Source: Deltaproteobacteria bacterium (GTDB lineage: Bacteria > Myxococcota > Kuafuiibacteriia > Kuafuiibacteriales > Kuafuiibacteriaceae). Taken from it: 64,000 nucleotides of DNA. The position numbers and the translations under genes were made by a program. Positions 25,350-54,700 of the stretch are shown piece by piece. The notes under the pieces were generated by a model that was given only the letters and a program-made list of their open reading frames with translations, was not told where the DNA came from and did not search any database. Position 1 is the first letter of the stretch; each line of letters starts with the position of its first letter. Where the stretch lies: NCBI GenBank assembly GCA_040218735.1, contig JAVJQW010000064.1, positions 28,804 to 92,803 of the forward strand, read 5' to 3'.

Positions 25350-27155
25350 ATGTCGGGCGAGAAGCTGATTACGGAGCGAAAGCGCACGCACATGTGCGGC
25401 GACCTGCGGGCCGACCACGAGGGCCAGGAGGTCGTGTTGATGGGGTGGGTGCAGACCGCCCGCGATCACGGTGGCGCCGTGTTCTTCGATCTCCGGGATC
25501 GCACCGGGATCGTGCAGGTCGTGTTCGACGAGTCCGAGGGCAAGGACGTCCACACGATCGCCGAGCGTGTCCGCAGCGAGTGGGTCATCGGGATCGTCGG
25601 CAAGGTCCGCTCACGCGGCGCCAACGTGAACCCGAACATCGCGACCGGCGCGATCGAGATCGCCGCGGACTCGATCGAGGTCTTCAACGAAGCCAAGACC
25701 CCGCCCTTCGAGATCGAGGACGACATCGACACCGCCGAGGAGAAGCGCCTCGTGCACCGCTACCTCGACCTGCGGCGCCCGCGCATCCAGCGGAACCTGA
25801 TGCTGCGTTCGAAGCTCAACCACGTCGTCCGCAAGTCGCTCGTCGACCAGGGCTTCATCGAGCTCGAGACGCCGTTCATGGTGAAGTACACGCCGGGCGG
25901 CGCGCGTAACTTCCTCGTGCCGTCGCGCCTGTCGCAGGGGTGCTTCTACGCGCTCGCCGAGAGCCCGCAGCTGTACAAGCAGCTGTTCATGATGTCGGGC
26001 TTCGATCGCTACTTCCAGATCACGAAGTGCTTCCGCGACGAGGACCTTCGCAACGACCGGCAGCCCGAGTTCACGCAGATCGATCTCGAGATGTCGTTCG
26101 CGGACATGGACGACGTACACACCGTGATGACCAAGGTCGTCCGCGGGATGTTCAAGGAGGCGCTCGACGTCGAGCTCCCCGAGCAGTTCCCGCGCATGAC
26201 CTACGACGAGGCGATGCGCCGCTTCGGCAGCGACAAGCCGGACCTGCGCTTCGGGCTCGAGCACATCACGCTCACCGACCTCGTGAAGGCCAACCCCGAC
26301 GGTGGGCTCCCGCTCTTCGAGCAGGCCGTCGCGCAGGGCGGCATGGTCAAGGCGATGGTCGTCCCCGCCGAGCACAAACTCTCGCGCAAGGACGTCGACA
26401 ACCTCGAGGCGAAGGCGAAGGAGGTGAAGGCCAAGGGTCTCGGTCGCGCGAAGGTGAACGAGGACGGCGGCTGGACGCAGTCCCCGTTCGCGAAGACCGT
26501 GAAGGACGAGGTCCGCCTCGCGATCAACGAGGCGTGCGGCGCGAAGCCCGGCGACCTCATCCTCTTCCAGTTCGGCCCCGAGAAGCTCGTGCAGACGGTG
26601 ATGAACCACCTGCGCCTCCTCCTCGGGAAGCAGCTCGACCTCATCCCGCCGAACACCTGGTCGGTGCTGTGGGTCGTCGAGTTCCCGCTGTTCGAGTACA
26701 GCGAAGAGAACAAGACGTACGTCGCGGCGCACCACCCGTTCACGTCGCCGCGCGCCGAGGACGTCGACCGCCTCACCACGGACCCCGGCGCTTGTCGCGC
26801 ACGTGCGTACGACCTCGTGCTCAACGGCAACGAGATCGCGGGCGGCTCGGTCCGAATCCACGACCCGATCGTGCAGGCGAAGGTCTTCGACGCGCTGTCG
26901 ATCTCCGAGGAGGAGCAGCGCGCGAAGTTCGGCTTCCTGCTCGACGCGCTCTCCTACGGCTGCCCGCCGCACGCGGGCATCGCGGGCGGCATGGACCGCA
27001 TCGCGATGTTGATCGCCGGTGCGTCCTCGCTCCGGGAGGTCATCCCGTTCCCGAAGACGCAGAAGGGCCAGGACCTCATGACCGGCGCGCCGACGCCGGT
27101 GGACGACGCGCAGCTCGCCGAGCTGTCCGTGAAGTCGATCGCGCCGAGGGACTGA
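25350..27155 (+). CDS. aspS: Aspartate-tRNA ligase, probably non-discriminating (Asp/Asn)
   Basis: RTHMCG, RDHGG (His is typical of non-discriminating enzymes), SPQLYKQL, CFRDED, RQPEFTQ, AHHPFT, PPHAG, GMDR, IPFPKT. Confidence 0.97.
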   Translation: MSGEKLITERKRTHMCGDLRADHEGQEVVLMGWVQTARDHGGAVFFDLRDRTGIVQVVFDESEGKDVHTIAERVRSEWVIGIVGKVRSRGANVNPNIATGAIEIAADSIEVFNEAKTPPFEIEDDIDTAEEKRLVHRYLDLRRPRIQRNLMLRSKLNHVVRKSLVDQGFIELETPFMVKYTPGGARNFLVPSRLSQGCFYALAESPQLYKQLFMMSGFDRYFQITKCFRDEDLRNDRQPEFTQIDLEMSFADMDDVHTVMTKVVRGMFKEALDVELPEQFPRMTYDEAMRRFGSDKPDLRFGLEHITLTDLVKANPDGGLPLFEQAVAQGGMVKAMVVPAEHKLSRKDVDNLEAKAKEVKAKGLGRAKVNEDGGWTQSPFAKTVKDEVRLAINEACGAKPGDLILFQFGPEKLVQTVMNHLRLLLGKQLDLIPPNTWSVLWVVEFPLFEYSEENKTYVAAHHPFTSPRAEDVDRLTTDPGACRARAYDLVLNGNEIAGGSVRIHDPIVQAKVFDALSISEEEQRAKFGFLLDALSYGCPPHAGIAGGMDRIAMLIAGASSLREVIPFPKTQKGQDLMTGAPTPVDDAQLAELSVKSIAPRD

Positions 27156-27158
27156 CCC

Positions 27159-27506
27159 ATCAGCGACGACGACGCCGAGGTCGCCGCGCTCGCGGCGTTT
27201 CAGCAGCAGGTCACACGCGCGCGCCTGTCGATCGGGCTGCCGTGCATCGGTGTCGGTCTGGTGCTCGGCGTGGTCGGTGCGATCTGGGTGCACCAGCTCG
27301 CGATCGACGCCGGCTTCTCGGGCGGGGCCGCGGTGACCATCGCGCTCGCGGGCTTCGCGCCGCCGGTCGCGATCGCGCTGGTCGGGGGCGTCATCGCGGC
27401 GCGCAGGATCACGAACGCCAAGAAGGGCGCCTGGCTCGACGCGCTCGCGGCCGAGCACGGCGTCCCACCCGAGCGCCTGCGCGAGGTCGCGGAGATCTTC
27501 GACTGA
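27159..27506 (+). CDS. Small two-TM membrane protein (start uncertain: ATC 27159 or GTG 27261)
   Basis: Two hydrophobic helices; frame is open from the aspS TGA; GAGGG lies 8 nt before ATC 27159. Confidence 0.65.
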   Translation: MSDDDAEVAALAAFQQQVTRARLSIGLPCIGVGLVLGVVGAIWVHQLAIDAGFSGGAAVTIALAGFAPPVAIALVGGVIAARRITNAKKGAWLDALAAEHGVPPERLREVAEIFD

Positions 27507-27572
27507 CCGCGCGATCTACGACGGCCGACGGATACGCGAGTGCCCTGACATTGGGTCCAAATGTGGGTGGAC

Positions 27573-28100
27573 ATGGGTGCGGGTGTGTATTCGGGCCGCC
27601 GCCGTCTGCTGCGCGTCTTGGGGCGCGGCGCGGTCGGCGCGGGGATCTTTGGCCTCACGGCCGCGACACGGGACGAGCTGACGCCGAGCGCGCACGGGAC
27701 CGAGGTGCGTCGGTACTACCCGCGCGTGCGTGTCGCTTCGATCGCGGAGGTCGGCGCGGAGCCGATCGCGTTCGGTTATCCGGATGAAGCGTCGCCCTGC
27801 TTCCTGGTGCGGCTCGATCGCCCGGCGGAGCATGGCGTCGGGCCGAACGAAGCCATCGTCGCGTTCAGTCGAATTTGTCCGCACATGGGCTGCCCCATCG
27901 AGCGCGTCGTGGTCGCCGATGCGCAGCTCGGGCCCTGCGGCTGTCACTACAGTGCGTTCGATCTCGCGTTCGCGGGACGGCAGCTTCAGGGGCAGTCCAC
28001 CGAAGACCTCCCGCAGGTGCTCCTCGAGACCGATGACGACACGGTGTGGGCCGTGGGGATGCGGGGCCTGGTCTACGGCCGCTTCGCCAACGTGCCATGA
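27573..28100 (+). CDS. Rieske [2Fe-2S] small subunit, AioB/IdrB-like, Tat signal
   Basis: SGRRRLL Tat motif; YPD...GVGP...IVAFS; CPHMGC and CGCHYSAFD; C-terminal GLVYGR, all typical of AioB. Confidence 0.88.
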   Translation: MGAGVYSGRRRLLRVLGRGAVGAGIFGLTAATRDELTPSAHGTEVRRYYPRVRVASIAEVGAEPIAFGYPDEASPCFLVRLDRPAEHGVGPNEAIVAFSRICPHMGCPIERVVVADAQLGPCGCHYSAFDLAFAGRQLQGQSTEDLPQVLLETDDDTVWAVGMRGLVYGRFANVP

Positions 28101-30619
28101 AGTTCACACGTCGAGAGTTCTCGGGCCTCGCCGCCGCCGGTGTCGCGGGCGGGTGTGCCGCGACCCAGAGCGAGCCGACCCACGTCGACGACACGTCGCT
28201 GCCGATCATCCCCGCCCACGCGAAGCGCGTCCCGACGGCGTGTGACTACTGCATCGTCGGTTGCGGCTACGAGGCGATCACGTGGCCGGTCGAAGACCGC
28301 GGGACCGACGAGGACCCCGCCGATTGGTACGCGCCCGCGATGCATACGATTGCGGACGTCGACGGACGTCCTCACCACGTCGTCGTGCGACCGGACCGCA
28401 GCTCGCGCGTGGTCAACGTCGGCGGAGACTTCAGCGTGCGCGGCGGAACGCTCGCGCAGAAGCTCTACTCCAAGGATCGCGCGACGCGCGAACGCCTCAC
28501 GACGCCGCTCCTCCGAGTCGACGGTGAGCTCGTGCCCATCGGGTGGGACGAAGCGCTCGAGATCAACGCGCGCGTCGGCCGGTACGTGCTCGACCGCCAC
28601 GGCGAGCTCGCGTGGGGGATGAAGCACTACTCGTATCAGTACTACGAGAACACCTACGCGTTGACGAAGCTCGCGCTCGGCGCGGTGAACACGCCGGTCT
28701 GGGCGGTGCACGACAAGCCGGCGGAAGCCTCGGACACCCCCGGGCTCAGCGACGCCGGGGTGTACGCGTTCAACGCTTCGTATCAGGACTGGCGTGACGC
28801 CGAAGTCATCTTCGTGTCCGGCGTCTCGCTGTACGACGCCAAGTCGATCCTCTTCCAGGACTGGGTCGCGCCGGGGGGCGCGAAGCTGATCGTCGTGAAC
28901 CCGCGGCGCGATCTCACCGCGTCGTACGCGCTCGCGAACGGTGGGTTGCATCTGCAGGTCGTGCCGGGGACCGACACGCTCCTGCACAACGCCATCGCGC
29001 GGCAGATCATCGAGATGGGCGGTGAGGACGCGGCGTTCATCGCGGCTCGCACGGTGTCGGCCGAAGATCTCGCAGGCGAGGGCGGGTTCCGGCGCGCCGC
29101 GTTCGGTCGGACGTACGAGGACTACCGAGCGTTCATCCTCGGTCGCGACGAGCACCGCGCAGAGGCGGCGGCCGAGATCACCGGGGTGCCGGCGGAGCAG
29201 ATCCGCGCGGCGGCGCAGATGTTGGCGGCGCCTGCGAAGAGCGCCTTCATGCTCGAGAAGGGCAACTACTGGAGCCACAACGTCGACAACACGAACTCCT
29301 TCGTCAGCCTCGGCCTCCTCGTCGGAGCGGGCGGCGCCCCCGGGCGTGTCATCGGACGGGCCGGCGGACACCAGCGCGGGATGATCAAGGGCGGGCGCTA
29401 TCCGCACGACAAGTCGCCCGATCACTACGAGGGACACCCGCTCGCGTTGAACGTCGACCGTTGGGTGACGGAGGGGCGTGTGCGCTACATGTGGGTCGTC
29501 GGCACGACGTGGTGCGCGGCGATGGGCGCGACCGGGCACCTCGACGAGGTCATCTCGATCCTGACGCGACACACCGGACCCCAGATGACGAGCGCCGTGA
29601 TGCGCGCGGGACGTGTCGACGTCGAGGCGGCGGTCGACGCGCTGCGCGCGAAGGTCGACGCGCTCGGGATGGTGTTGGTTCAACAGGACATCTACGCCAA
29701 CGGGCTGAGCGCCTACGCAGACCTCGTGTTCCCAGCGGCGGGGTGGGGCGAGGCGGACTTCACGCGGATGCAGGGCGAGCGGAGGTTGCGCATGTACTCG
29801 CGCATCGCGGACGCGCCAGGCGATGCGAGACCCGACTGGTGGATCGTCGCGCAGACGGCGCAGCGCATGGGTTACGAAGGGTTCGACTGGCCGGACGGCA
29901 ACGCGATCTTCGAGGAGGCCGCCGAGGCCTCCGTCGGTTCGCCGCACGACTACCAGGCGCTCGTCGACCTCGCGCGGGAGCGCGGTGAGAGCGGTCATGA
30001 GTTCTTGCGCGCGCTGGGCACCGAGGGGGTGCAGTGTCCGATCCGTCGAGACGGCGACGCGTTGGTCGGCACGCCGCGACTTCACGACGAGCGGTTCTTC
30101 ACGACGTCCGGCCGCGCGGTGTTCATGGAGGGATCGTGGGCGCGCGTCGCGCCGGTGCAGGAACGCATCGCGCCGCGCGGCGACGAGCTTTGGGTGACGA
30201 ACATGCGCGTGAACGCGCTGTGGCAGTCCCTCGCGGACGACGCACGCATCCCGCAGCGCATCGATCGCTACCCCGCGAACGTCGTGCACATCCACCCCGC
30301 TGATGCCGCCGCGCGTGGCATCGCGACGGGAGACTGGGTCTCGCTCGAGAACGACTCCGTCCTCAATCACCAGGGCCAGCCACACCTGGGTCGTGTTCGC
30401 GCCGTCGCGCTCGTGACCGACTCCACGCGCCGGGGCGTGATGTGCACGTACTTCAACTACCGAGGTGACGTGTCTCAGAGCGCCAACTGCCTGACGGACG
30501 GCGAGGTGGACCCGATGAACCCGGTGTACCGCTACAAGCTCGCGCGCGCGCGTGTCGTACGCCTCGGACGCTCCGAGTTTGCGGAGACGATGGTGCGGCA
30601 CGCGCCGAACCGCGTGTGA
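28097..30619 (+). CDS. Molybdopterin oxidoreductase large subunit, AioA/IdrA-like, Tat signal
   Basis: TRREF Tat motif; [3Fe-4S] motif CDYCIVGCGY...SVRGG; ERLTTPL; HDKPA; EKG; GGHQRG; ADLVFPAA; ERRLR; IHPADA. ATGA overlap with the small subunit. Confidence 0.9.
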   Translation: MKFTRREFSGLAAAGVAGGCAATQSEPTHVDDTSLPIIPAHAKRVPTACDYCIVGCGYEAITWPVEDRGTDEDPADWYAPAMHTIADVDGRPHHVVVRPDRSSRVVNVGGDFSVRGGTLAQKLYSKDRATRERLTTPLLRVDGELVPIGWDEALEINARVGRYVLDRHGELAWGMKHYSYQYYENTYALTKLALGAVNTPVWAVHDKPAEASDTPGLSDAGVYAFNASYQDWRDAEVIFVSGVSLYDAKSILFQDWVAPGGAKLIVVNPRRDLTASYALANGGLHLQVVPGTDTLLHNAIARQIIEMGGEDAAFIAARTVSAEDLAGEGGFRRAAFGRTYEDYRAFILGRDEHRAEAAAEITGVPAEQIRAAAQMLAAPAKSAFMLEKGNYWSHNVDNTNSFVSLGLLVGAGGAPGRVIGRAGGHQRGMIKGGRYPHDKSPDHYEGHPLALNVDRWVTEGRVRYMWVVGTTWCAAMGATGHLDEVISILTRHTGPQMTSAVMRAGRVDVEAAVDALRAKVDALGMVLVQQDIYANGLSAYADLVFPAAGWGEADFTRMQGERRLRMYSRIADAPGDARPDWWIVAQTAQRMGYEGFDWPDGNAIFEEAAEASVGSPHDYQALVDLARERGESGHEFLRALGTEGVQCPIRRDGDALVGTPRLHDERFFTTSGRAVFMEGSWARVAPVQERIAPRGDELWVTNMRVNALWQSLADDARIPQRIDRYPANVVHIHPADAAARGIATGDWVSLENDSVLNHQGQPHLGRVRAVALVTDSTRRGVMCTYFNYRGDVSQSANCLTDGEVDPMNPVYRYKLARARVVRLGRSEFAETMVRHAPNRV

Positions 30620-30667
30620 AGCGGGAGCGAACGCAACCTTTCGGAGCTTCGAACCGATAACCCTCGC

Positions 30668-30886
30668 ATGACGCGACGCCTCCGCGCTTCCGACTTCGAC
30701 CCGCCCGCGCGCACGTTCACGCAGCGCCTGGTGCGCAACATGGGTCAGGACTACCAGCCCACGAACATCATGGGGCAGCCGATGCGCCGCGTTCCGTCGG
30801 GGCGGGCGACGGACCACGACCCGCAGCCGCGCACGTTCACGCAGTACCTCGTGAGCCGCATGAACGGCGACGTCTGGGAAGGTTAG
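30668..30886 (+). CDS. 72-aa protein with internal duplication
   Basis: DFDPPARTFTQRLVRNM / DHDPQPRTFTQYLVSRM at a 120-nt period; GC3-rich codons. Confidence 0.65.
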   Translation: MTRRLRASDFDPPARTFTQRLVRNMGQDYQPTNIMGQPMRRVPSGRATDHDPQPRTFTQYLVSRMNGDVWEG

Positions 30887-30890
30887 ACGC

Positions 30891-32213
30891 TCACTTCGCC
30901 AAGCGCCGCCACGCGGCGAGCCTCTTCCCGATCGTCGCCTCCTCGCCGTTCTTCGTCGGCTCGTAGTAGCGGCGCCCGAGCAAGGGCTCCGGGAGGTACG
31001 TCTCGCCGGGCGCGATGCCGCCGAGGTCGTGCGGGTACTTGTAGCCCTTGCCGTGGCCTTGCTGCTTCGCCATGGCGTTCTTCCCGGGGAGGATGTGTTT
31101 GGGGACGGGGAGCGGGCCGCGGGTGCGGACGTCCTTGAGCGCGGCGCCGTACGAGGTCACCGCGGTGTTCGATTTGGGGGCGGACGCAAGGTAGGTTGCG
31201 GCCTGCGTCATCGGCAGCACGCCCTCCGGCATGCCGACGAACTCGTAGGACTGGAGCGCGTTGATCGCGACCTGCAGCGCGGTCGGGTCGGCGTTGCCGA
31301 CGTCCTCCGACGCGAAGATCACCATCCGGCGCAGGACGAAGCGCGGGTCCTCGCCGCTCTCCAGCATGCGCACGAGGTAGTAGACCGCGGCGTCGGGGTC
31401 CGAGCCGCGCATCGACTTGATGAACGCCGAGACGACGCCGTAGTGCTCGTCGCCCGCCTTGTCGTAAAGGAGTGTCTTGTGCGCGGCGGCTTCGTCTGCG
31501 ACCTCGCGCGTGAGCCTCACGGGCTCGCCGGGCTCGGCGAGGAGCGTCGCGTCGCGCACCGCGAGGTCGAGCACCGTGAGCGCGCGCCGCGCGTCGCCGT
31601 AGGCGCCGTTGGCGATGAGCTCCAACGCGTCTTCTTCGACCTCGAGCTTCAGCCCCTTGAACCCGTCCGCGAGCGCGCGCCGTAGGATGGCGACGAGCGC
31701 CTCCGCGTCGATCGCCTGGAGCACGAACACCCGCGTCCGGGACAACAGCGCCGCGTTGAGCTCGAACGACGGGTTCTCGGTCGTGGCGCCGATCAGCGTG
31801 ACGAGGCCGCGTTCGACGGCGTCGAGGAGGGCGTCCTGCTGCGACTTCGACCAGCGGTGAATCTCGTCGACGAACAGGATCGTGCGCTCGCCGTGTTGGC
31901 CGCGCGCGACGCGTGCAGCCTCCAGCGTCTTCCGGAGATCGGCGACGCCCGACAGCACCGCGGACATCTGCACGAACCGCATCTTCGTCAAGCGCGCGAC
32001 GAGCCGCGCGATGGTCGTCTTGCCGGTGCCGGGCGGCCCCCAGAGGATCATCGACGGCACGCGGTCCGCTTCGATCAGCCGGCGCAACAGCTTGCCTTCG
32101 CCGAGCAGGTTCTCCTGGCCGAGGACGTCCTCCATCCGCGACGGCCGCATCCGATCCGCGAGCGGATCTTCGGAGTGCTTCGCGTCCGCGGCGTTGTCGA
32201 AGAGGTCGCGCAT
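30891..32213 (-). CDS. rarA: Replication-associated recombination protein A (RarA/MgsA AAA+ ATPase)
   Basis: PLADRMRP, WGPPGTGKTT, DEIHR, GATTENP, SAFIKSMRGSDPDAA, ASEDVG, GYKYPHD. ATG 32213. Confidence 0.96.
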   Translation of the reverse strand: MRDLFDNAADAKHSEDPLADRMRPSRMEDVLGQENLLGEGKLLRRLIEADRVPSMILWGPPGTGKTTIARLVARLTKMRFVQMSAVLSGVADLRKTLEAARVARGQHGERTILFVDEIHRWSKSQQDALLDAVERGLVTLIGATTENPSFELNAALLSRTRVFVLQAIDAEALVAILRRALADGFKGLKLEVEEDALELIANGAYGDARRALTVLDLAVRDATLLAEPGEPVRLTREVADEAAAHKTLLYDKAGDEHYGVVSAFIKSMRGSDPDAAVYYLVRMLESGEDPRFVLRRMVIFASEDVGNADPTALQVAINALQSYEFVGMPEGVLPMTQAATYLASAPKSNTAVTSYGAALKDVRTRGPLPVPKHILPGKNAMAKQQGHGKGYKYPHDLGGIAPGETYLPEPLLGRRYYEPTKNGEEATIGKRLAAWRRLAK

Positions 32214-32287
32214 GCGGACCAACGTGGCACGGTCCTTGACGCTCGTCACGACAGACCTAGTACGTCGGGCGGAGGTCGAAACCAGCC

Positions 32288-45694: not shown

Positions 45695-45758
45695 AGCGCT
45701 CGACGGTGGGTACCACCGCCCATGGACGGTGGTGCGGACCAGGGCTATCGTCCCGCCG

Positions 45759-48700
45759 ATGCCCGAGATCGAGGTCCAGGACGGTGCGCAGGAAGCGCCG
45801 AAGACCGCGGCGGACGACGCCTCCAAGCCGAACGGCCACGTCCCGAAGAGTCGCGTCCTCGACACCGAGGGGTTGCTCGACAACGACCGGCTCGCGGCCG
45901 TCGAGCAGGAGCTCGTCGACGCCGAGCGGTGGGCGGATCTCGCGGCGGTGTACGGGGTCGCGGCGGAGCGGGCGCCGGACGCTTCAGTCGGTCGGCAGAT
46001 GCTCTTGTCCGCCGGGCTGCTCTGGCTCGAGAAGCTGAACCAGCCGCGGCGCGCCGAACCCTACCTGGCGCGCGTGCTCGCGTCCGATCCCGACAACGTC
46101 GACGCGCTCGAGGCGATGCGGGACATCTGCGTGGAGGCGGGGCGGTTCGAAGAGGCCGCCGATCTGCTCGACCGCGCGGCGCTCTTGGTACGGGACGAAG
46201 ATCGCTCGGAGCTGCTAGTGGAGATCGCGGGCATCGCGTACGCGAAGCTCTCGGAGGTCGACCGCGCGCTCGCGGCGCTGCGTTACGCGTACGAGCTCGA
46301 CCCCGCGCGCGTCGACGTGCTCGACGAGGCGCGCACCGTCTTCATCGCCGAGGAGCGGTGGCTCGACGCCAAGCGGGTCCTCGACGACCAGGCGCAGGTG
46401 GTCCTCGCGGCCATCGAGAAGCCCACCTCCGATCAGACCGCCGACGTGGCGGGTGCCAACGCCGACGAGGCGAAGCCGAGTGACACGCTCGACATGCAAG
46501 GCACCTTGCCGTCGTCGATGCAGAACGAGGCGACGGCATCGATCGCCGAGGCGTACCGTCACCTCGGGATCGCGCTGCTCGATCACGCCGTGTGGCACGA
46601 GCTGTCGCAGCAGTGCCTCGACCGGGCGCGCGCGCTCGGCGACGCCGAGGCGCTGTCGAAGCTCGACGAGCTCGCGCACATCAAGAACGAATGGAAGTCC
46701 CACGCGGCGCGGTACCGCGACGAGGGGATGGAGGCGCGCGACAAACGGCGCGCCGCGGCGCTCTACCTGAAGGCGGCCGAGCTGTACGCGCACTACGGCG
46801 AGGATCCGATCCGCGCCGACGAGTACCTGGATCGCTGCCTGTTGCTCGTGCCCGGTTACCCGCCCGCGTTGCGGTTCATCGAGGCGCGGCAGGCCGGTGC
46901 GGGCCCCTCCGAGGCGATCGTGAAACGCCTGGAGGGGATGGTCGCGAGCGTGAAGGATCCGACGATCAAGGTCGAGATCCTCCAGCGCCTCGCGCGGCTG
47001 CTGGAGACCACGCTCGCGCAGCTCCCGGAGGGTGAAGATGGGACGGCGACGGTCGATTCGATCGTCGCGGCGTACCGTCGCGCGCTCGCGCTCGCGCCCG
47101 GACACCGATCCGTCGCGGCGCGGGTCACGCAGATCCTGATGGCGGAGGAGCGCTTCGGGGACGCGGCGCAGGTCCTGGAGAGCCACCTTTCGGCGCTCAC
47201 CGACGAGTACGCGAAGAACCAGGCGCACCTCGAGCTGGGGCGCCTGTACGCCGAGATGCTCGGCGACTCCACGCGGGCACGCGCGCACTTCGAGGCGGTG
47301 CTCGTGCACAACCCCGCGCACCACGGCGCGGCGCGCGCGCTGTACGCGCTCTACAAGGACGCTGGCGACGCGCACCACCTGTTGTCGGTGCTGAAGGTCC
47401 TCGTCGAGTACAGCCCGGACCTGTTCTCGCGGCTCGACATGCTGCACGAGATGGCGTCGGTCGCGGCCGAGGTGAGCCGCGAGGAGGCCTTCCTCGTGAA
47501 CCGGCAGATCTTCGAGATCGATCCGGACGCCGACGGCGTACGGGATCGTCTCGAGACGCTCGCGGAGGCGCTGTCGCGGCACCACGCGCTCGCGGACGCG
47601 TACCGCGCGGCGGCGGAGAAGAAGGGCGGCGAGCGTGCGCTGTCGCTTTGGTTGGCGGCGGCGCGCATCTACGACGAGAAGCTCCCGCGGCCGAAGGATG
47701 CGATCGACGCGTACAAGTCGGCGCTCAACCTCGACAGCAGCAACGACGAAGCGCGCGCGGCGCTGGAGCGGTTGCTGCGCCAGCAGGACGATCCGGAGGC
47801 GCTCGTCGCGGTGCTGCAGAGCCAGCTCGACGGGAGCGACGACGCGGACAACAAGAAGCTCCTGCTCGCGAAGATCGGCGACGTCCTGGACCGCGAGCTG
47901 AACGACGTCGACGGCGCGATCGATCGCTTCGTGCAGGTGCTCGAGCTCGACCCGGACGACGCGACGGCGCTCGCGAACCTCGACGATCTCTACCGGCGCG
48001 CGGAGCGCTTCGAGGAGCAAGAGCAGATCCTCGTGCGGCGCGAGAGCAAGATGGAGACGGCGAGTGACCTCGTCGACATCCAGGTGCGCCGCGCGCGTGT
48101 GCTGCAGGAGAAGCTCGACAAGGCGGTCGACGCCGCGGAGCTGTACCTCGACATCCTCGCGCGCTCGCCGGACCACGGCGAGGTGATCGCGGCGCTCGGT
48201 CGCCTCCTCGTCGCCGACGTCGTCCCGGTGCGCATCGCACGCGCGCTGGAGCCGATCTTCGGGCAGCGCGGCCAGTACCAGCCGCAGCTCGACATGATCC
48301 TGATCCTCACGGACGCCGAGCAGGATCCGTCCGCCCGGGCGGAGCTCGCGCGGCGCGGCGCGCAGATCGCGCAGACGCGTCTCGGCGACGCCAACGCGGC
48401 GTTCGACCTCGTGGCGACCGCGCTCCGCGCGAGCCCGGGGAGCGAAGACCTCGCGGAGTGGTTGCTGCGGCTCGCGACCGAGCTCGAGACCCACGACCGC
48501 GCGGCCGAGGTGCTGTCGTCGATCCTGGAGGGGGATCTCGAGCCGGCGGTGGAGGGCAACATCGCCTCCGCGCTCGCGGAGCTGTACGAGCGCACGCTCG
48601 CGGACCCGTCCCAGGCCATCACGTATTACCGGCGCGCGCTCGACGCCGACGGCGGCAACGCGGCGGCGATCGCGGCGCTGGAGCGTCTGCTCGGCGCCGA

Positions 48701-51700
48701 GCAACGGTACGAAGAGCTCGCCGCGCTCCTCACCGAGCGGATGGCGGCGGCGGAGGACAAGTCGGCGAAGGTGCAGCTCGGGTTGGCGGTGGCGTCGATC
48801 CGCGCGGAGCACCTGAACGACACCGACGGATCGATCGAGGCCTATCGCGAGGTGCTCTCGCTCGAACCGAAGGAGGCGACGGCGCTCGCGCGCCTGGCCG
48901 AGACGTACGAGCGGGCCGAGCGGTGGCGTGAGCTGGTCGGCGTCCTGGATCGCATGCGCGACGCGAGCGACGACGCACGTGTCGTCGCCGCGACCGAGGT
49001 GAAGGCTGGCGAGGTGCTCCGCCTGCGCCTCAACGAGAAGAAGCAGTCGCTGGAGCGATACCAGGCCGCGCTCGCCGCGGATGACACGCACGACGGTGCG
49101 ATGCGCGGGCTGGAGGCGCTGCTCGAAGACGTCGAGCTGCGCGCGCAGGCGGGGGCTTCGCTGGAGCCCGCGTACACGAAGAAGGAGCGGTGGCGGGATC
49201 TCGTCATCGCGCTCGAGAGTCAGCTCGGCGCGGTCGTGGAGTCGGATCGGCGCCGCGATCTCTTCCTCAGGATCGCCGACGTCGAGAGCGACAAGCTGGA
49301 CCAGCCCGACGGTGCGTTCGACACCCTCGCGCGTGCGTTCCGCGAGGGCCTCGTACCCAACGAGGAGCGCGCCCGCCTCGCGACGCTCGCGCTGCGCGCG
49401 AACCGCGCCGGCGACCTCGCGGTGCTCTACGAAGACGCGCTCGAGACGAACAAGGACGACGCGGAGCTGCTCCGCGATCTCGCGCGCCTGTACGACGGCG
49501 CGGCGGGCGAGCCGAACAAGGCGCGCACGGCGTGGGAGCGCCTACGCAGCGCGGTGCCGGGCGACGAAGAGGCGCTCGGCGCGCTCGAGCGTCTGACCGC
49601 GGCGGGGGACGATCCGGGTGCGCTGGCCGAGGTGTTGATCGCTCGCGCCGATGCGTCCGCCGATGCGGCGGAGCGCGTCGCGTTCCTGAAGCGCGCGTCC
49701 GCGATCTACGAGGAGGCGGCCGAGGAGCTGGACCTCGCGACGCGCACGATGGAGCGCGCGCGGGACGTCGCGCCCACGGAGCGTTCGACGTGGCAGGAGC
49801 TGCAGCGGCTGTACGAGCTGCAGAGCAACGAGCAGGGGTTGATCAACGCCCTCGCGCAGGAGGCGAAGCTCATCGAGGAGCCGCTCGCGCGCGCCGGCGT
49901 GTTGGAGCGGTTGGCGCGCGCGCTGGTCGCGGCGGGCGAGCGGGACCGCGCGATCCAGGAGTTCACCGCGGCGCTCCAGGCGCACCCCGAGCACACCCCT
50001 TCACGCAACGGACTGGAGGATCTGCTCCAGACCGACGTCGCCGCGAAGGCGGCGGTCGCGCTCGAGCCCGTGTACCGGGCGGCGGGCGACTGGTCGCACC
50101 TCGTCGAGGCCTACGAGATCCTCGCGGGGGCGACCGAGGATTCGGCGGAGCGCGTGGAGCGGCTCGTTGCGATCCGTTCGATCTACGAGGAGCGCCTCGG
50201 CAAGCTCGACCGCGCGTTCTCCGCGGCGGCGCGGGCGTTCTCGGAGGCACCGCTCGACGAGGAGCTGCTGGAGTCGTTGGAGCGGCTCGGGCGCTTGTCG
50301 GGGCAGGTCGAGGAGCTGATCGGGATCGTCGAGGACCAGGCGGAGTCGCTGCCGGTCGCGGCGGACGAACGCAGCGCGCTCCGGCTGCGCGTCGCGCGTT
50401 ACGCGGAGGCGCTGCTGCGCGATCGCGACCAGGCGATCGCGGCGTACCAGAAGGTGATCGACGAGCGCCCGGACGCGGTCCTGGCGCTGGAGGCGCTGGA
50501 GCGCATCTACGCGAAGGGCGGCGACGCCCGCGAGCGCGTGGACGTCCTGCGGCGCATGGCGGACCTCACGGACGACGCCGAGGAGCGCGTCGCGCGGTTG
50601 CGATTGGCGGCGCAGATCCTCGACGAAAAGCTCGGCGACCGCGACAAGGCGGCGCACCTGTACGAGCAGGTCGTGATGCACGCGCCCGGTGACGCCGAGG
50701 CGCTCGGGCGCCTCGACGCGATCTACGCCGAGCTGCGTGACCACCCGATGCTCTCGCGCATCCTGGAGATGAAGGTCGCGGCTTCCTCGGGTGAGGCGTG
50801 GGCGCAATCCAACTTGCGGCTCGGTAACCTTCGGCGTGAGAAGCTCGACGATCCGCGCGGTGCGATGAACGCGTTCGTGCAGGTCCTCGACGCGGGGCCG
50901 GAGGTCGGCGCACCGTACGAAGCGGCGCTGTTCGCGCTGGACGATCTCGTCGACGCGCAGAAGGAGAACCACCCGGACCTCGCAGGGCTCGGCGCGGAGG
51001 CGATGGAGCCGCACTGGCTGAAGAAGGGGATGCCGCTGAAGGTGATCGGTGCGAAGGAAGCGCAGATCACCGCGGCCGACGATCCCGAGACGCGCCGGAA
51101 CCTCCTGCTGCAGATCGCGGATCTCTACGTCCAGGAGGCGGAGCAGCCCGAGATGGCGTTCCTCGCGCTGACGCGGGCGTTCTCGGAGCAGCCGAACGAC
51201 GCGGAGCTCGCGGACCGACTCGAGTCACTCGCGCGTCAGGCGGAGACCGAGGAAGAGCTCGCGGACGTGTACGCGGCGGCGCTGCCGTCGATCGAGGACC
51301 CGGAGCTTTCGCTGCGCCTCGCGCGGCGGACCGCGGATCTGTACGACCGGGTGTTGGGGCGCGGTGAGGCGTCGACCCCGTTCTACGAGCGGATCCTCGA
51401 GCAGTCCCCGGACGACGCCGCGGCGCTCGCGGCGTTGGAGCGCATCCACCGTCGCGCGGGCGACGCGAAGAAGCTCGTCGCGACGTACCGCGGGATGCTG
51501 CGGCTCGCGGAGCAGGACGCCGAGAAGGTGCGCTTGTGGGGGCAGATCGCTCAGCTGCTCGAAGGGGACATCGAGGACAGCGACGGTGCGTTCGAGGCGT
51601 ACCGCGAGATGATGTCGCTCATCCCGCACGACGTCGCGGTGCTCAAGAAGATGGCGTCGCTGTGCGAGCGCTCCGGGCGTGACCAGGACCTCGCGATGGT

Positions 51701-54700
51701 CCTCGCGAAGGAGTCGGCGCTCGCCGAGTCGCCGGCGGAGCGTTCGAAGGTGCTGTTGCGCCTCGCGACGCTGCAGCGCGAGAAGCTCGACGATCGCGTC
51801 GCGGCCGTCGACGCGTACGCCGAGGTCTTGGAGCTGTCGAAGTCGGACCCGGGTGCGATCGCGGGCCTGTCCTCGATCATGAAGTCCCAGGGCGACGGGC
51901 GCGCGGAGGCCGCCCGTGCGCTGGCGCCGGTCTACGAGATGACCGGCGCGTTCGACGAGCTGATCACGTGCCTGGAGGTGCAAGTCGGCGCGGCGCGCTC
52001 CGCGGAGGAGAAGAAGGCGCTGTTCTCGCGGATCGGTGAGATCTACGACGAGCGCGTCGGGCGCCCCGAGCACGCGTTCACGTATTACTCGCGCGCTTTG
52101 GTCGAGGACCTGTTCGACGAGGCGCTGTTCGAGAAGGTCGAGCTGCTGGCGAAGGAGAACGGGCTGTTCGAAGACCTCGCGGGGCTGTACCTCGACGAGG
52201 TCGACGCGGTCACGGATCACGCGCTGCAAGTTCGCTTGCACCGCCGGGTCGCGGAGATCTACGACGCCGATCTGAAGGACGTCCCGCGCGCGATTGCGGA
52301 GTACAACAAGGTGCTCGACGTCGCCCCGGGCGACGGCGGCGCGCTGCGTGCGTTGGAGCGGCTGTACCGCGACGCGGGCTCGTTCGGCTCGCTCGCCGAC
52401 GTCTATCGGCGGCGCATCGCCCAGACCGAGGACCCGGAGGGGCGCGGCAAGCTGATGCGCGAGTTCGCGCGGCTGCAGTCCGAGGAGCTCGACGATCTCC
52501 CTGGCGCGATCGCGACGCTGCGGCGGCTGCTCGAGCTGTTCCCGGACGACGTCGACGCGCTCGCGCGCCTCGCGAAGCTGTGTGAGGCGCAGGGCCGGGC
52601 GTCCGAGCTCGCGGACGTGTTGGAGCGCCTGATCGGCGCGGCCGAGGACGGCTCCGCGGTCCAGACGGACGCGCGCTTCTCGCTCGGCAAGCTGAAGGCC
52701 ACGCGCCTCGGTGACCTGGGCGGTGCGGACCTGCTGTTCGAGGAGGTCCTGGAGGCCAACCCCACGCACGAGGCCGCGCGTGACTACCTCGAAGAGCGCT
52801 TCGAGGACGCCGTCGCCGAGGAGGACGAAGCGGTCGCGACCGCGACCGGCGAGATGCTCGCGAAGGCGATGCGGACCGCGGAGCAGTGGGAGCAGCTCGT
52901 CTCGGTGCTGCGCGTGCGTGTGTCGCTAGCAGAGGATGCGTCGGAGCGCGTGCCGCTCAACCGCGAGATCGCGGACGTGCAGTGGCAGAAGCTCGAGGAG
53001 CCGCGGGCGGCGTTCGACACACTCGCGACGGTGTTCGTCGATGCGCCGGGTCTCGGTGAGGTGCGCGCGGGGCTGGAGTCCCTCGCGGAGCAGCTCGTCC
53101 GGCCGGACCGGTTGGTGGAGGTCTACGCGTCGGGGTTGTCGAACCTGCACGACACCGACGAGCGTGTGGAGGTCGAGCGTCGCATCGCGCAGATCCTCGA
53201 CCACGAGATCGCCGACAAGGAGCGCGCGGCGGAGGCGTGGCAAGACGTCTTGCGCGCGAAGCCCGAGGACGAGGAGGCGCTCGTCGCGCTCGACCGCCTC
53301 GACGAGATGCTCGGGCGCTGGGCGGCGCTGACCGACGTGCTCGAGAAGCGCGTCACCCTCGCGGAGGACGACGAAGAAAAACACCGCCTGTGTGTGCGGC
53401 TCGGCGCGACCTGGGACGAGCGGCTCGGCGAGCGCGCCGAGGCGATCGAGTGGTACCGCAAGGCGCGCGCGATCAAGACGCGTGACAAGGAGACGCTCCT
53501 CGCGCTGTCGCTCTTGCTGGATCCGGACGACCGCCCGCAGGAGCTGTTCGCGGTGCTGGAGGCGCTCGCGGAGCAGACCGAGGAGTCCCGCCAGAAGGTC
53601 CGGCTCACGAGCCGCATGGCGGAGCTCGCGTCGGGCCCGCTCGACCAGGGCAAGGAGGCGATCCAGCTCTATCAGAAGGTGCTGGAGGCCGACCCCGGGA
53701 ACAACGCGGCGACCAAGGCGCTCGAGGAGCTGTACGAGCGTGAGGGCCAGTGGTTCGAGCTCGCGCGGCACCTGGAGATGCAGCTCGAGAACGCGCGCGA
53801 CGAAAAGGACGTCATGCGTCTGCAGCGGCGCCTCGGGCTCGTGCGTGGCACGCGGCTCGGGAGCGTCGACGAGGCGGTGCGTTCGTGGACGGAGATCCTC
53901 AAGCGCAACCCGAACGACGTCGAAGCGCTCGAAGCGCTGCGCCAGACCTACCGCACCGCGGAGCGTTGGGACGACCTGGTCGCCACGCTCAGGAAGCTCA
54001 TCCCGCTGCAGATGGACGCGGCGGGGGTGAAGGCGATCCGGTTCGAGCTCGCGGAGGTGTTCCTCGAGCACACCGGCGAAAAGGACGAGGCGATCGAGTC
54101 CGCGAAGCGTGTGCTCGACGTGGAGCCGCACACCGTCGCGGAGCTGATGCGGCTGGAGGAGATCTTCACGCAGACCGGCGCGTACGGCGAGGCGGTCAAG
54201 GTGATGAACTACCGCGCCGAGCAGGCGGACACCGGCGGGGCGAAGGTCGACATCCTCTTCGAGATCGCGGCGATCTACGAGGACAAGATCAAGCGCAAGG
54301 CGGGTGCGGCCGCGGCGTACGAGCAGATCCTCGAGCTGGAGCCTTCGAGTCTGAAGGCGCACGAAGCGCTCGCGGCGATCTACGAGGACAACGGCGACTA
54401 CCGAAAGCTCGTCGAGCTCTACAACCGGCGGCTGAACGTCACGGAGGAGGTCGAGGAACGCAAGAAGCTGCTCTTCGCGGTGATCGACGTGCAGGAGCGC
54501 TGGCTCGGCCAGCCGGACCTCGCGTTCATGGCGGCGTGCCGGGCCTTCGGGGAAGAGGGCGCGGACGAGACGGCGCAAGAGATCGCGGAGCGGCTCGCGG
54601 AGGAGACGGACAGCTGGGAGATCCTGGCGGACGTCTACGCGGAGCAGGTCGAGCAGGTCGGCGTCGCGCGGGCGATCGAGCTGCGGCGTCGGCTCGGTGA

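Follow-up and report, generated by a model that had tools for sequence, protein, structure and literature searches.

The two-gene unit at positions 27573 to 30619 of a 64,000-nucleotide stretch of Deltaproteobacteria bacterium DNA (the window) encodes a Rieske protein and a molybdenum enzyme whose sequences place them in a distinct, widespread, and uncharacterised clade, the sister group of the iodate reductase IdrA. The catalytic subunit probably carries its own export signal and lipid anchor, to judge from N-terminal motifs conserved across that clade. By analogy with IdrA, we put at roughly 0.5 the probability that the product is a Tat-exported, membrane-tethered heterodimeric oxyanion oxidoreductase working like IdrA, with iodate as its lead substrate.

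Both genes lie on the forward (+) strand. The first (27573..28100) encodes a 175-aa small subunit, an AioB/IdrB-like Rieske [2Fe-2S] protein, with an alternative ATG at 27561, and the second (28097..30619) encodes the 840-aa large catalytic subunit of the Mo-bisPGD/[3Fe-4S] type. The TGA of the small-subunit gene is overlapped by the ATG of the large-subunit gene in an ATGA at 28097-28100. The N-termini of the nearest homologues, MKFNRRQL and MKLTRRQL, support the start at 28097. The original prediction had described a Rieske gene followed by a Mo-bisPGD gene with an ATGA overlap (aioBA order). Both open reading frames were confirmed, and every motif that it quoted was found: SGRRRLL in the small subunit, and MKFTRREFSGLAAAGVAGGC, CDYCIVGC, HDKPAEASD, and RAGGHQRG in the large subunit. 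Across the clade, the Rieske gene stood directly upstream of the large-subunit gene in all 29 assessable loci. A pseudogene was ruled out, as both frames are intact (GC3 0.83 and 0.89) and every cofactor motif is there.

The small subunit could be placed among AioB/IdrB proteins by profile, PDB match, and motifs. It scored 128.8 bits against TIGR02694 (cut-off 95.65), its best PDB match was AioB (E = 2e-31), and its CxH...CxxH ligands are present, with box I (CPHMGC) and box II (CGCH) intact, both disulfide cysteines included. Reading the sequence from the N-terminus, a twin-arginine motif, SGRRRLL (27591..27611, +), is followed by the h-region GAVGAGIFGLTAA. An RR motif with a hydrophobic stretch was seen on the small subunits of every clade examined, and the Tat motif on the Rieske partner is common to the query, IdrAB, and AioAB. 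The disulfide cysteines are kept in most Rieske subunits of the query clade, as in Alcaligenes faecalis AioB, whereas IdrB has lost them; this retention counts against an IdrA-like reading.

The large subunit scored 393.4 bits against TIGR02693 (cut-off 359.05), and both subunits thus passed the two profiles named for scoring in the original prediction. Validated IdrA (438.7 bits) also exceeds this cut-off, as does canonical AioA (1149), and the cut-off therefore does not separate functions. Pfam matches of the large-subunit entry were Rieske_3, Molybdopterin, and Molydop_binding, and the PDB sequence match was to AioA (E = 1e-76). The AF2 model of the large subunit had a mean pLDDT of 91.4, and its best Foldseek matches were the AioA structures 8r3a, 4aay, and 1g8j (TM 0.80-0.82). 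The homologue alignment located the [3Fe-4S] motif C49-x2-C52-x3-C56 (CDYCIVGC, 28241..28264, +), whose three cysteines are invariant across 43 aligned homologues, and the Ser residues of FSVRGG in the query and GSVRGA in NT-26 AioA are aligned with each other; the CxxCxxxC...S motif is intact, as had been claimed. The query resembles AioAB (NT-26, 4aay/5nqd; A. faecalis, 1g8k) in its fold, in this cluster motif, and in having an Ala at the Mo, but differs in its identity of ~30%, its TIGR02693 score (393 vs 1149), and four second-sphere changes. With IdrAB (Denitromonas iodatirespirans IR-12 locus L106; Pseudomonas sp. SCT), it shares the Rieske plus Mo-bisPGD/[3Fe-4S] architecture, the B-then-A gene order, and the CDYC variant of the cluster motif, at 42% identity for the large subunit and 41% for the small.

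Among large subunits, homologues from metagenomes and Dehalococcoidia are 79-58% identical to the query, the genetically validated D. iodatirespirans IR-12 IdrA is 42% identical, and canonical AioA 29-31%. An IQ-TREE phylogeny (LG+C20, 49 rows) recovered the query clade with a support of 99 (SH-aLRT), as sister to IdrA plus a clade labelled 'ECF', within a 99-supported group without AioA. The AioA representatives (Scytonema, Rhodobacteraceae, Meiothermus, and one relative's copy) formed a separate 99-supported clade, and FastTree on 99 and on 250 rows agreed with the placement. Canonical AioA identity was rejected, with the query outside the AioA clade in the trees. Nesting in IdrA was likewise rejected, both by the tree and by an AU test in which forcing the query subclade together with 12 IdrA rows cost 184.8 lnL (p-AU 3.8e-11), the constrained group having been defined with the tree already in hand. 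The phylogeny proposed as a check thus found nesting neither in AioA nor in IdrA, and it upheld the suggestion that the enzyme is closer to IdrA and the uncharacterised Aio-like clades than to AioA, placing it in a sister clade outside both AioA and the peroxidase-associated IdrA.

Members of this clade come from Dehalococcoidia (the largest named group), Myxococcota, and metagenomes. They are 46-79% identical to the query, make up a large part of the best 120 matches, and are common in Dehalococcoidia and Myxococcota genomes. Of 40 genomes related to that of the host, none has an orthologue of the two-gene unit. Ten positions are at least 85% conserved in the clade while a different residue is fixed in IdrA: I148, L245, D272, T274, A275, R333, H394, G446, Q559, and F676. 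The clade is likely the 'unknown clade' of Reyes-Umana et al. 2021 (PMC8692401), to which sequences from Halorubrum spp. and GCA_002730485.1 belong. In the accessible part of that paper, the 'unknown clade' falls outside IdrA, is without neighbouring peroxidases, and includes a Dehalococcoidia bacterium; the same part does not mention a large-subunit signal peptide such as that predicted for the query clade. Scans for the Halorubrum members recovered none, P0115 returning mostly Acidimicrobiia and P0123 two Thermoplasmata loci. A literature search, covering article text outside supplements and figures, returned no paper on the clade or on a signal peptide of Aio/Idr large subunits.

We then compared the active site with those of AioA and IdrA. 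Eight conserved second-sphere residues are described for NT-26 Aio in the accessible part of PMC10448176: Asp169, His199, Arg201, Glu207, Lys413, Arg447, His451, and Glu453. The query has S179, H205, K207, D213, K388, R421, H425, and R427 at these positions, identical to Denitromonas IdrA at all eight and to AioA at four (His199, Lys413, Arg447, and His451 kept; Asp169Ser, Arg201Lys, Glu207Asp, and Glu453Arg changed). Alignment to 5nqd equated the loop H205-D-K-P-A-E-A-S-D213 (28709..28735, +) with NT-26 His199 to Glu207, and the segment R421-A-G-G-H425-Q-R427-G (29357..29380, +) was aligned with NT-26 Arg447, His451, and Glu453. NT-26 Asn200/Arg201 are replaced by Asp/Lys exactly as in IdrA, and Ala209 of HDKPA, at NT-26 position 203, is kept, leaving no protein ligand to Mo. 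R421, H425, and Q426 were invariant in homologue alignment A1. The AioA motifs given in the original prediction were right for NT-26 AioA (CHFCIVGC, HNRPAYNSE, and RLGGHQEG in the PDB alignment). Its description of a rewired active site held relative to AioA (4/8 identical) but not as something special to this enzyme, given the 8/8 match to IdrA and the occurrence of this signature in neighbouring clades. The IdrA-type signature (S, H, K, D, K, R, H, R) also occurs in the ECF-type clade and partly in an Acidimicrobiia clade, and is therefore not exclusive to IdrA; by its distribution among sequences, it may be an ancestral trait and not a marker for iodate as substrate.

The N-terminus of the large subunit consists of TRREF (28106-28120, +), FSGLAAAGVAGG, and C20, forming a predicted Tat signal peptide (28097..28156, +) that ends in a lipobox-like A-G-G-C. 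A textbook lipobox is of the L-A-A-C type, and A-G-G-C fits a permissive pattern only. In the clade, at least 84 of 95 large subunits have a Tat signal, with an RR motif and then an uncharged h-region of at least 12 residues; 71 of the 95 continue into [..][AGS]C, and 13 more are without the Cys. The Dehalococcoidia members have an L-A-A-C lipobox followed by Pro/Thr-rich linkers. This conservation argues that the signal is no chance feature of one sequence, and it bears out the Tat motif with a possible lipobox that had been noted on the large subunit. A credible signal was found on 1 of 99 sequences in the IdrA clade and on 0 of 4 AioA, while in large subunits of the 'ECF' clade the h-region that follows the RR motif is too short for a signal. 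In the AF2 model, residues 1-5 and 8-32 have a pLDDT <50. Tat-signal profile HMMs (NCBIfam, Pfam) gave no relevant match at E <= 10 in the first 50 residues of either subunit. The host genome encodes TatC (226 bits), Lgt (three matches), and signal peptidase II (three Peptidase_A8 matches).

This predicted export architecture sets the enzyme apart from its characterised relatives. As described in the accessible part of a 2026 review (PMC13673990), the two Aio subunits leave the cytoplasm together, as a heterodimer, by way of the small-subunit signal, which agrees, together with the 0 of 4 AioA signals, with the earlier statement that canonical AioA has no signal peptide and is co-exported with AioB. 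IdrA is also without its own signal in the available portion of PMC8692401, whereas the query large subunit has both a predicted Tat signal and a lipobox-like Cys. Most molybdopterin Tat substrates carry the signal on the catalytic subunit, according to the literature, and class II (lipoprotein) Tat substrates and MopB enzymes with such a catalytic-subunit signal are among the closest known systems; in the query, both subunits carry a predicted signal.

Next, we examined the gene neighbourhood. A Pfam scan of 19 neighbouring ORFs (13.7 to 43.6 kb) identified ScpB, RluB-like, AspS, RarA/MgsA, ClpB, BamA, an RNase J-like protein, Lhr helicase, and Fpg. The 19 included no gene for a peroxidase, a cytochrome c, an ars/aio regulator, or the Mo cofactor. 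The Pfam scans agree here with the original description of an orphan locus, with no peroxidase, aioXSR, ars, cytochrome c, or Mo-cofactor gene nearby; the absence of aioXSR and ars genes is a point of difference from AioAB. Apart from the two enzyme subunits, no called ORF at 17001-41000 of the window contains a CxxCH haem motif, and no electron-partner gene adjoins the two-gene unit. A scan of 27000-31000 gave 0 sigma-70 promoter sites and 0 intrinsic terminator sites.

Loci across the clade differ from those of IdrA, for which idrABP1P2 synteny with two cytochrome c peroxidases is typical, as stated in the accessible part of PMC8692401. A CCP_MauG (idrP-type peroxidase) gene was found in 0 of 24 clade loci vs 92 of 98 IdrA loci, counts that do not take in the neighbourhoods of the 66-79% identical relatives P0004-P0007, which the metagenome scan missed. 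The clade is also off any conserved island, with no conserved neighbour gene in 34 loci save MobA in 5. The search of the host genome for idrP, as had been suggested, found no IdrP1/P2 orthologue: its CCP genes are 28-34% identical to IdrP1/P2, compared with 46-72% for true orthologues, and idrP genes elsewhere in the genome were rejected on this basis. The missing IdrP-type peroxidases and the divergence of the host CCPs argue for a different chemistry or physiological role.

Taken with an IdrA-type second sphere, the replacement of both acidic funnel-mouth residues (by Ser and Arg) makes an enzyme working like IdrA the most likely reading, with substrate and direction of catalysis drawn by analogy. 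The analysis as a whole supports the inference in the original prediction of an uncharacterised oxyanion oxidoreductase that is possibly membrane-tethered. Both subunits would be exported folded through Tat, each by its own twin-arginine signal, the Rieske subunit then being held by its signal or released from it. The enzyme would act outside the cytoplasm, with Mo-bisPGD and [3Fe-4S] on the large subunit and the Rieske [2Fe-2S] cluster on the small one. Electrons would pass from a high-potential periplasmic donor to the Rieske cluster, to [3Fe-4S], and to the Mo, and there reduce an anionic oxyanion without dedicated IdrP peroxidases.

Other readings of substrate have to be weighed against this. 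In our view it is unlikely that the enzyme is an arsenite or antimonite oxidase that has diverged, with cytochrome c or a cupredoxin accepting the electrons from As(III)/Sb(III) and only the anchoring unlike that of AioAB. Although the TIGR02693 and TIGR02694 cut-offs are passed, the former is not discriminating, as the scores of IdrA (438.7), AioA (1149), and the query (393.4) illustrate. The His, Arg, and His that hydrogen-bond Mo=O are kept, the Glu-to-Asp change is conservative, and the Rieske disulfide cysteines are as in A. faecalis AioB; against this, the funnel acids Asp169 and Glu453 are lost, Asn200/Arg201 have become Asp/Lys as in IdrA, and the query lies outside the AioA clade. A lack of peroxidases fits an oxidase, but aioXSR, ars, and cytochrome c genes are also absent nearby. 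Arsenite-oxidising organisms are reported in the 'unknown clade' in the accessible part of PMC8692401, yet the P0115 and P0123 scans placed none in ours. It is rather doubtful, too, that the substrate is neither arsenite nor iodate but a different oxyanion (of a halogen, a chalcogen, or nitrogen) or a small uncharged molecule, making this a third Aio/Idr class. The separate, well-supported clade, the ten positions fixed differently from IdrA, and the absent peroxidases would fit such a class, as would an export architecture and Rieske disulfide state unlike those of IdrAB and a genomic context unlike aio and idr islands. However, the neighbouring genes give no hint of a pathway, and with all eight second-sphere residues equal to those of IdrA, the immediate surroundings of the catalytic site do not point to a new substrate.

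A further alternative concerns export rather than catalysis. The RR segment of the large subunit could be a non-working remnant, for example a chaperone-binding peptide, with export depending on the Rieske signal alone; NarG offers a parallel for a chaperone-binding N-terminal peptide. The lack of Tat-signal HMM matches and the atypical A-G-G-C lipobox are compatible with this, and the RR motif with a too-short h-region in the 'ECF' clade indicates that such remnants exist in the family. We nevertheless regard it as very unlikely, in view of the 84 or more of 95 members in which the RR motif precedes an h-region at least 12 residues long (71 with the lipobox Cys), the textbook L-A-A-C and Pro/Thr-rich linkers in Dehalococcoidia, and the 32 N-terminal residues that are unstructured in the model.

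More tentatively, and at less than even odds, the clade may form a third Aio/Idr class, lipid-anchored and with Tat signals on both subunits, whose physiological substrate is something other than arsenite or respiratory iodate, or which reduces iodate independently of peroxidases and is common in marine Dehalococcoidia. With a Tat signal of its own, the catalytic subunit may retain the way in which ancestral members of the family were exported; if so, the truncated RR motif of the 'ECF' clade may be an intermediate towards the signal-less IdrA. Automatic pipelines label these genes 'arsenite oxidase' or 'arsenate reductase (azurin) large subunit', and as the NCBIfam equivalog cut-off passes both IdrA and the query clade, surveys of arsenic and iodine cycling that count such matches lump together three or more kinds of enzyme. 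The dual Tat signals and lipid anchor would provide a test case for the export of two-subunit cofactor enzymes. Knowledge of the substrate would locate the point in the family at which enzymes changed between oxidising arsenite and reducing iodate, and a peroxidase-independent iodate reductase in marine Dehalococcoidia would be an overlooked sink in marine iodine cycling.

The pair comprises a small Rieske subunit (27573-28100, forward strand, 175 aa) and a large subunit (28097-30619, forward strand, 840 aa; hereafter the query), with the start of the large-subunit gene overlapping the stop of its co-directional neighbor in an ATGA. The starts of its closest homologues (MKFNRRQL and MKLTRRQL) favor the ATG at 28097 over an upstream in-frame GTG. 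All motifs quoted in the original prediction are present, and the AioA motifs it gave are right for NT-26 AioA, as confirmed by PDB alignment. Pfam assigned Rieske to the small subunit; in the large one it recognized Rieske_3, Molybdopterin, and Molydop_binding. Against NCBIfam, the small subunit scored 128.8 bits with TIGR02694 (cut-off 95.65) and the query 393.4 bits with TIGR02693 (cut-off 359.05). As canonical AioA scores 1149 bits with TIGR02693 and validated IdrA 438.7, this model does not discriminate between these functions. An AlphaFold2 model of the large subunit, built from an alignment of 43 homologues, had a mean pLDDT of 91.4, with values below 50 at residues 1-5 and 8-32. Structurally it was closest to AioA chains (TM 0.80-0.82), with Nap and Fdh next (0.62-0.70).

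A word-indexed protein search returned 542 homologues at E ≤ 1e-20, the best 120 of which were 46-100% identical to the query, far above any solved AioA. Genome scans identified carriers in Dehalococcoidia (54-59% identity), Myxococcota (45-50%), and, at 41-47%, in Alpha-, Beta-, and Gammaproteobacteria, Nitrospinota, Rokubacteria, Methylomirabilales, and others. The second scan recovered Denitromonas iodatirespirans IR-12, in which genetics, as reported in the available text of Reyes-Umana et al., showed that idrA is needed for iodate respiration (PMC8692401). In three representative proteins an AioA-like catalytic domain is joined at its C-terminus to another oxidoreductase: P0134 (1591 aa) to a flavin amine oxidase, P0150 (1835 aa) to PSCyt1 plus a glucose/sorbosone dehydrogenase, and P0166 (2111 aa) to a LodA-type L-lysine epsilon-oxidase. 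The same list includes ~20 more proteins of 1000-2100 aa.

Trees built with FastTree (99 and 250 rows) and with IQ-TREE under LG+C20 (49 rows) were concordant. Moving inward from canonical AioA representatives, they place two deep lineages, a clade of mostly Acidimicrobiia (a make-up known from a later scan), and then a group with support of 99. This group contains the query's clade, IdrA together with an alpha/gammaproteobacterial “ECF” clade whose loci lie next to ECF sigma and anti-sigma genes, and a small pair that is probably archaeal. The query's clade itself has support of 99, and its nearest neighbor is a small Chloroflexota group without a signal. Placement of the query's subclade within IdrA was rejected (p-AU 3.8e-11), for a group defined post hoc from a tree already seen.

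The export signals were then compared across these clades. We scored an RR motif followed by at least 12 uncharged, mostly hydrophobic residues and then [hydrophobic/small][AGS]C, in 95 distinct clade sequences; these were the 97-row MRCA set minus P0098 and P0123, which were left out because IQ-TREE puts both outside the clade. A Tat signal with a lipobox-like Cys was present in 71 of the 95 large subunits, and a Tat signal without the Cys in 13. Four failed the h-region rule (two are signal-like on inspection), four were truncated at the N-terminus, and three had no RR, two of these at contig starts. Dehalococcoidia large subunits have a textbook L-A-A-C followed by Pro/Thr-rich linkers, and the query has A-G-G-C20 at the lipobox position. 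The clade's large subunits thus mostly carry their own Tat signal, in contrast to IdrA, where the rule flagged 3 of 99 rows, and AioA, where it flagged none of four. Two of the three flagged IdrA-clade rows had the signal within upstream translation, 5′ of the homologues' start. The third, L050 from a Methanobacteriota archaeon MAG, looks real and is the sole IdrA-clade member with a credible large-subunit Tat signal (SRREFLRWGAAAAAVATLSLPALG); a peroxidase gene adjoins it. The small-subunit Tat motif was present in every clade, and TatC, Lgt, and signal peptidase II are all represented in the host genome. Large subunits of the “ECF” clade (L022, L024-L027, L038, L041) have a conserved N-terminal RR motif (e.g., SRRDLLAARSPS[IV]D[FY]G), which may be a vestigial Tat motif, as the h-region falls below the length needed for a signal. 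In the available text of the published work, IdrA lacks a signal peptide while IdrB carries one of the Tat type (PMC8692401), and a 2026 review describes Aio heterodimer export via the small-subunit signal as unusual among molybdopterin Tat substrates (PMC13673990, in the portion available). A search of the literature, covering text passages, found no Aio/Idr large subunit described as carrying a Tat or lipoprotein signal.

Gene neighborhoods also separate the query's clade from IdrA. In the IdrA clade, 92 of 98 loci have a di-heme peroxidase gene alongside and the other six are short or edge loci; in the query's clade, 0 of 24 have one. The host's CCP genes were rejected as idrP genes located elsewhere, with 28-34% identity to IdrP1/P2 versus 46-72% among true orthologues. 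Across 34 clade loci, the only neighbors to recur were MobA (5 loci) and, at 4 loci each, a hybrid sensor kinase and a short-chain dehydrogenase. The Rieske gene lies immediately 5′ in 29 of 33 other clade loci, and the remaining four begin at a contig edge. Both Rieske disulfide cysteines (CxHxGC...CxCH) are retained in the query's partner and most of the clade, whereas IdrB and the “ECF” clade have CxHxGG...CPxH. All seven “ECF” loci are preceded by ECF sigma and anti-sigma genes and followed by a cytochrome c, but only one has a peroxidase. In L032-L044, from Nitrospinota and other bacteria, idrP1P2BA is followed by a conserved module (cytochrome c, FAD/FeS oxidoreductase, second Rieske protein, cytochrome b, and FixO-like cytochrome c) that might supply Idr with electrons as a dedicated complex.

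Within the window, the pair is flanked by aspS (25350-27155) and by the convergent rarA/mgsA (30891-32249), among housekeeping genes including ScpB, an RluB-like gene, ClpB, and BamA. As predicted, the locus is an orphan: the 19 ORFs scanned (13.7-43.6 kb) yielded neither a peroxidase or cytochrome c nor an aio/ars regulator or Mo-cofactor gene, and no CxxCH motif occurs in the called neighbor ORFs of 17001-41000, the two subunits left aside. Immediately 3′ of the large-subunit gene is a 72-aa ORF (30668-30886, forward strand, GC3 0.92) with two copies of an internal repeat, D-P-x-P/A-R-T-F-T-Q-x-L-V-x-x-M, and between aspS and the Rieske gene is an 81-aa ORF (27261-27506, forward strand, GC3 0.96) whose two hydrophobic stretches are typical for small membrane proteins. 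Neither has a relative in the fetched loci, and the 81-aa ORF has no Pfam match. Further along, a 4182-aa ORF of nearly all TPR-type repeats (45729-58277, forward strand) precedes a 1038-aa zinc-ribbon/GYF-domain protein.

The query is the single TIGR02693 match over cut-off in the host genome (11.6 Mb, ~70% GC), which itself has no canonical AioA. No orthologue was found in 40 relatives, including one same-genus and 18 more same-family genomes. Three relatives (G001:C984, G004:C67, G016:C5; L163-L165) have another homologue 36-38% identical to the query, and that of G016, the only one placed in the tree, groups with canonical AioA. As two relatives keep the rarA-clpB-bamA block without aspS across from rarA, the pair sits at a synteny break; this, with a composition that agrees with the genome (GC3 0.83 and 0.89), fits either old acquisition or widespread loss. 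Elsewhere in the host genome, a MopB gene (G000:C55:397074-399020, reverse strand) with one in-frame TGA in a 945-aa open frame is probably a selenocysteine formate dehydrogenase.

What the data show directly is the enzyme's clade and fold, together with its cofactor motifs, signal motifs, and gene context. Eight conserved second-sphere residues have been defined for NT-26 Aio, with Asp169 and Glu453 at the substrate-funnel mouth (PMC10448176, in the text available). The query keeps His199 (H205), Lys413 (K388), Arg447 (R421), and His451 (H425), has conservative replacements at Arg201 (K207) and Glu207 (D213), and is changed at Asp169 (S179) and Glu453 (R427). It therefore matches AioA at four of eight positions and Denitromonas IdrA at all eight, so that the active site is IdrA-type rather than uniquely rewired, the one correction to the original prediction. 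Because the funnel-mouth pair becomes Ser/Arg in the query and IdrA alike, the funnel would, judged from sequence, suit an anion such as iodate better than neutral As(OH)3. The same signature is common to the “ECF” clade and partly present in the Acidimicrobiia clade; it thus predates peroxidase association and does not demonstrate iodate specificity.

At ten positions, the query's clade has a conserved residue where IdrA is fixed to a different one. The main argument against simple IdrAB equivalence is the absent peroxidases. Published models, in the available text, have IdrP1/P2 clear H2O2 or another oxidant arising in iodate reduction (PMC8692401). We favor IdrA-like, reductive activity on an anionic oxyanion, iodate first, with a probability of roughly 0.4-0.5. 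Action on a different substrate is less likely, and an arsenite or antimonite oxidase somewhat less likely still. Tat would export both subunits folded, the catalytic subunit would be lipid-anchored at Cys20, the enzyme would face the periplasm, and an electron path would link a high-potential partner, soluble or membrane-bound, through the Rieske and [3Fe-4S] clusters to the Mo site.

The trees and IdrA-type residues support the predicted assignment to an uncharacterized Aio/Idr-like oxyanion oxidoreductase outside AioA and nearer IdrA. From the published description, the query's clade is probably the “unknown clade” of Reyes-Umana et al., which in the available text lies outside IdrA, is devoid of peroxidases, and counts a Dehalococcoidia bacterium among its members (PMC8692401). 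In the text passages covered by the literature search, no assay of the query's clade was found. Collectively, iodate reductase has a populous, mis-annotated sister clade with an export architecture of its own.
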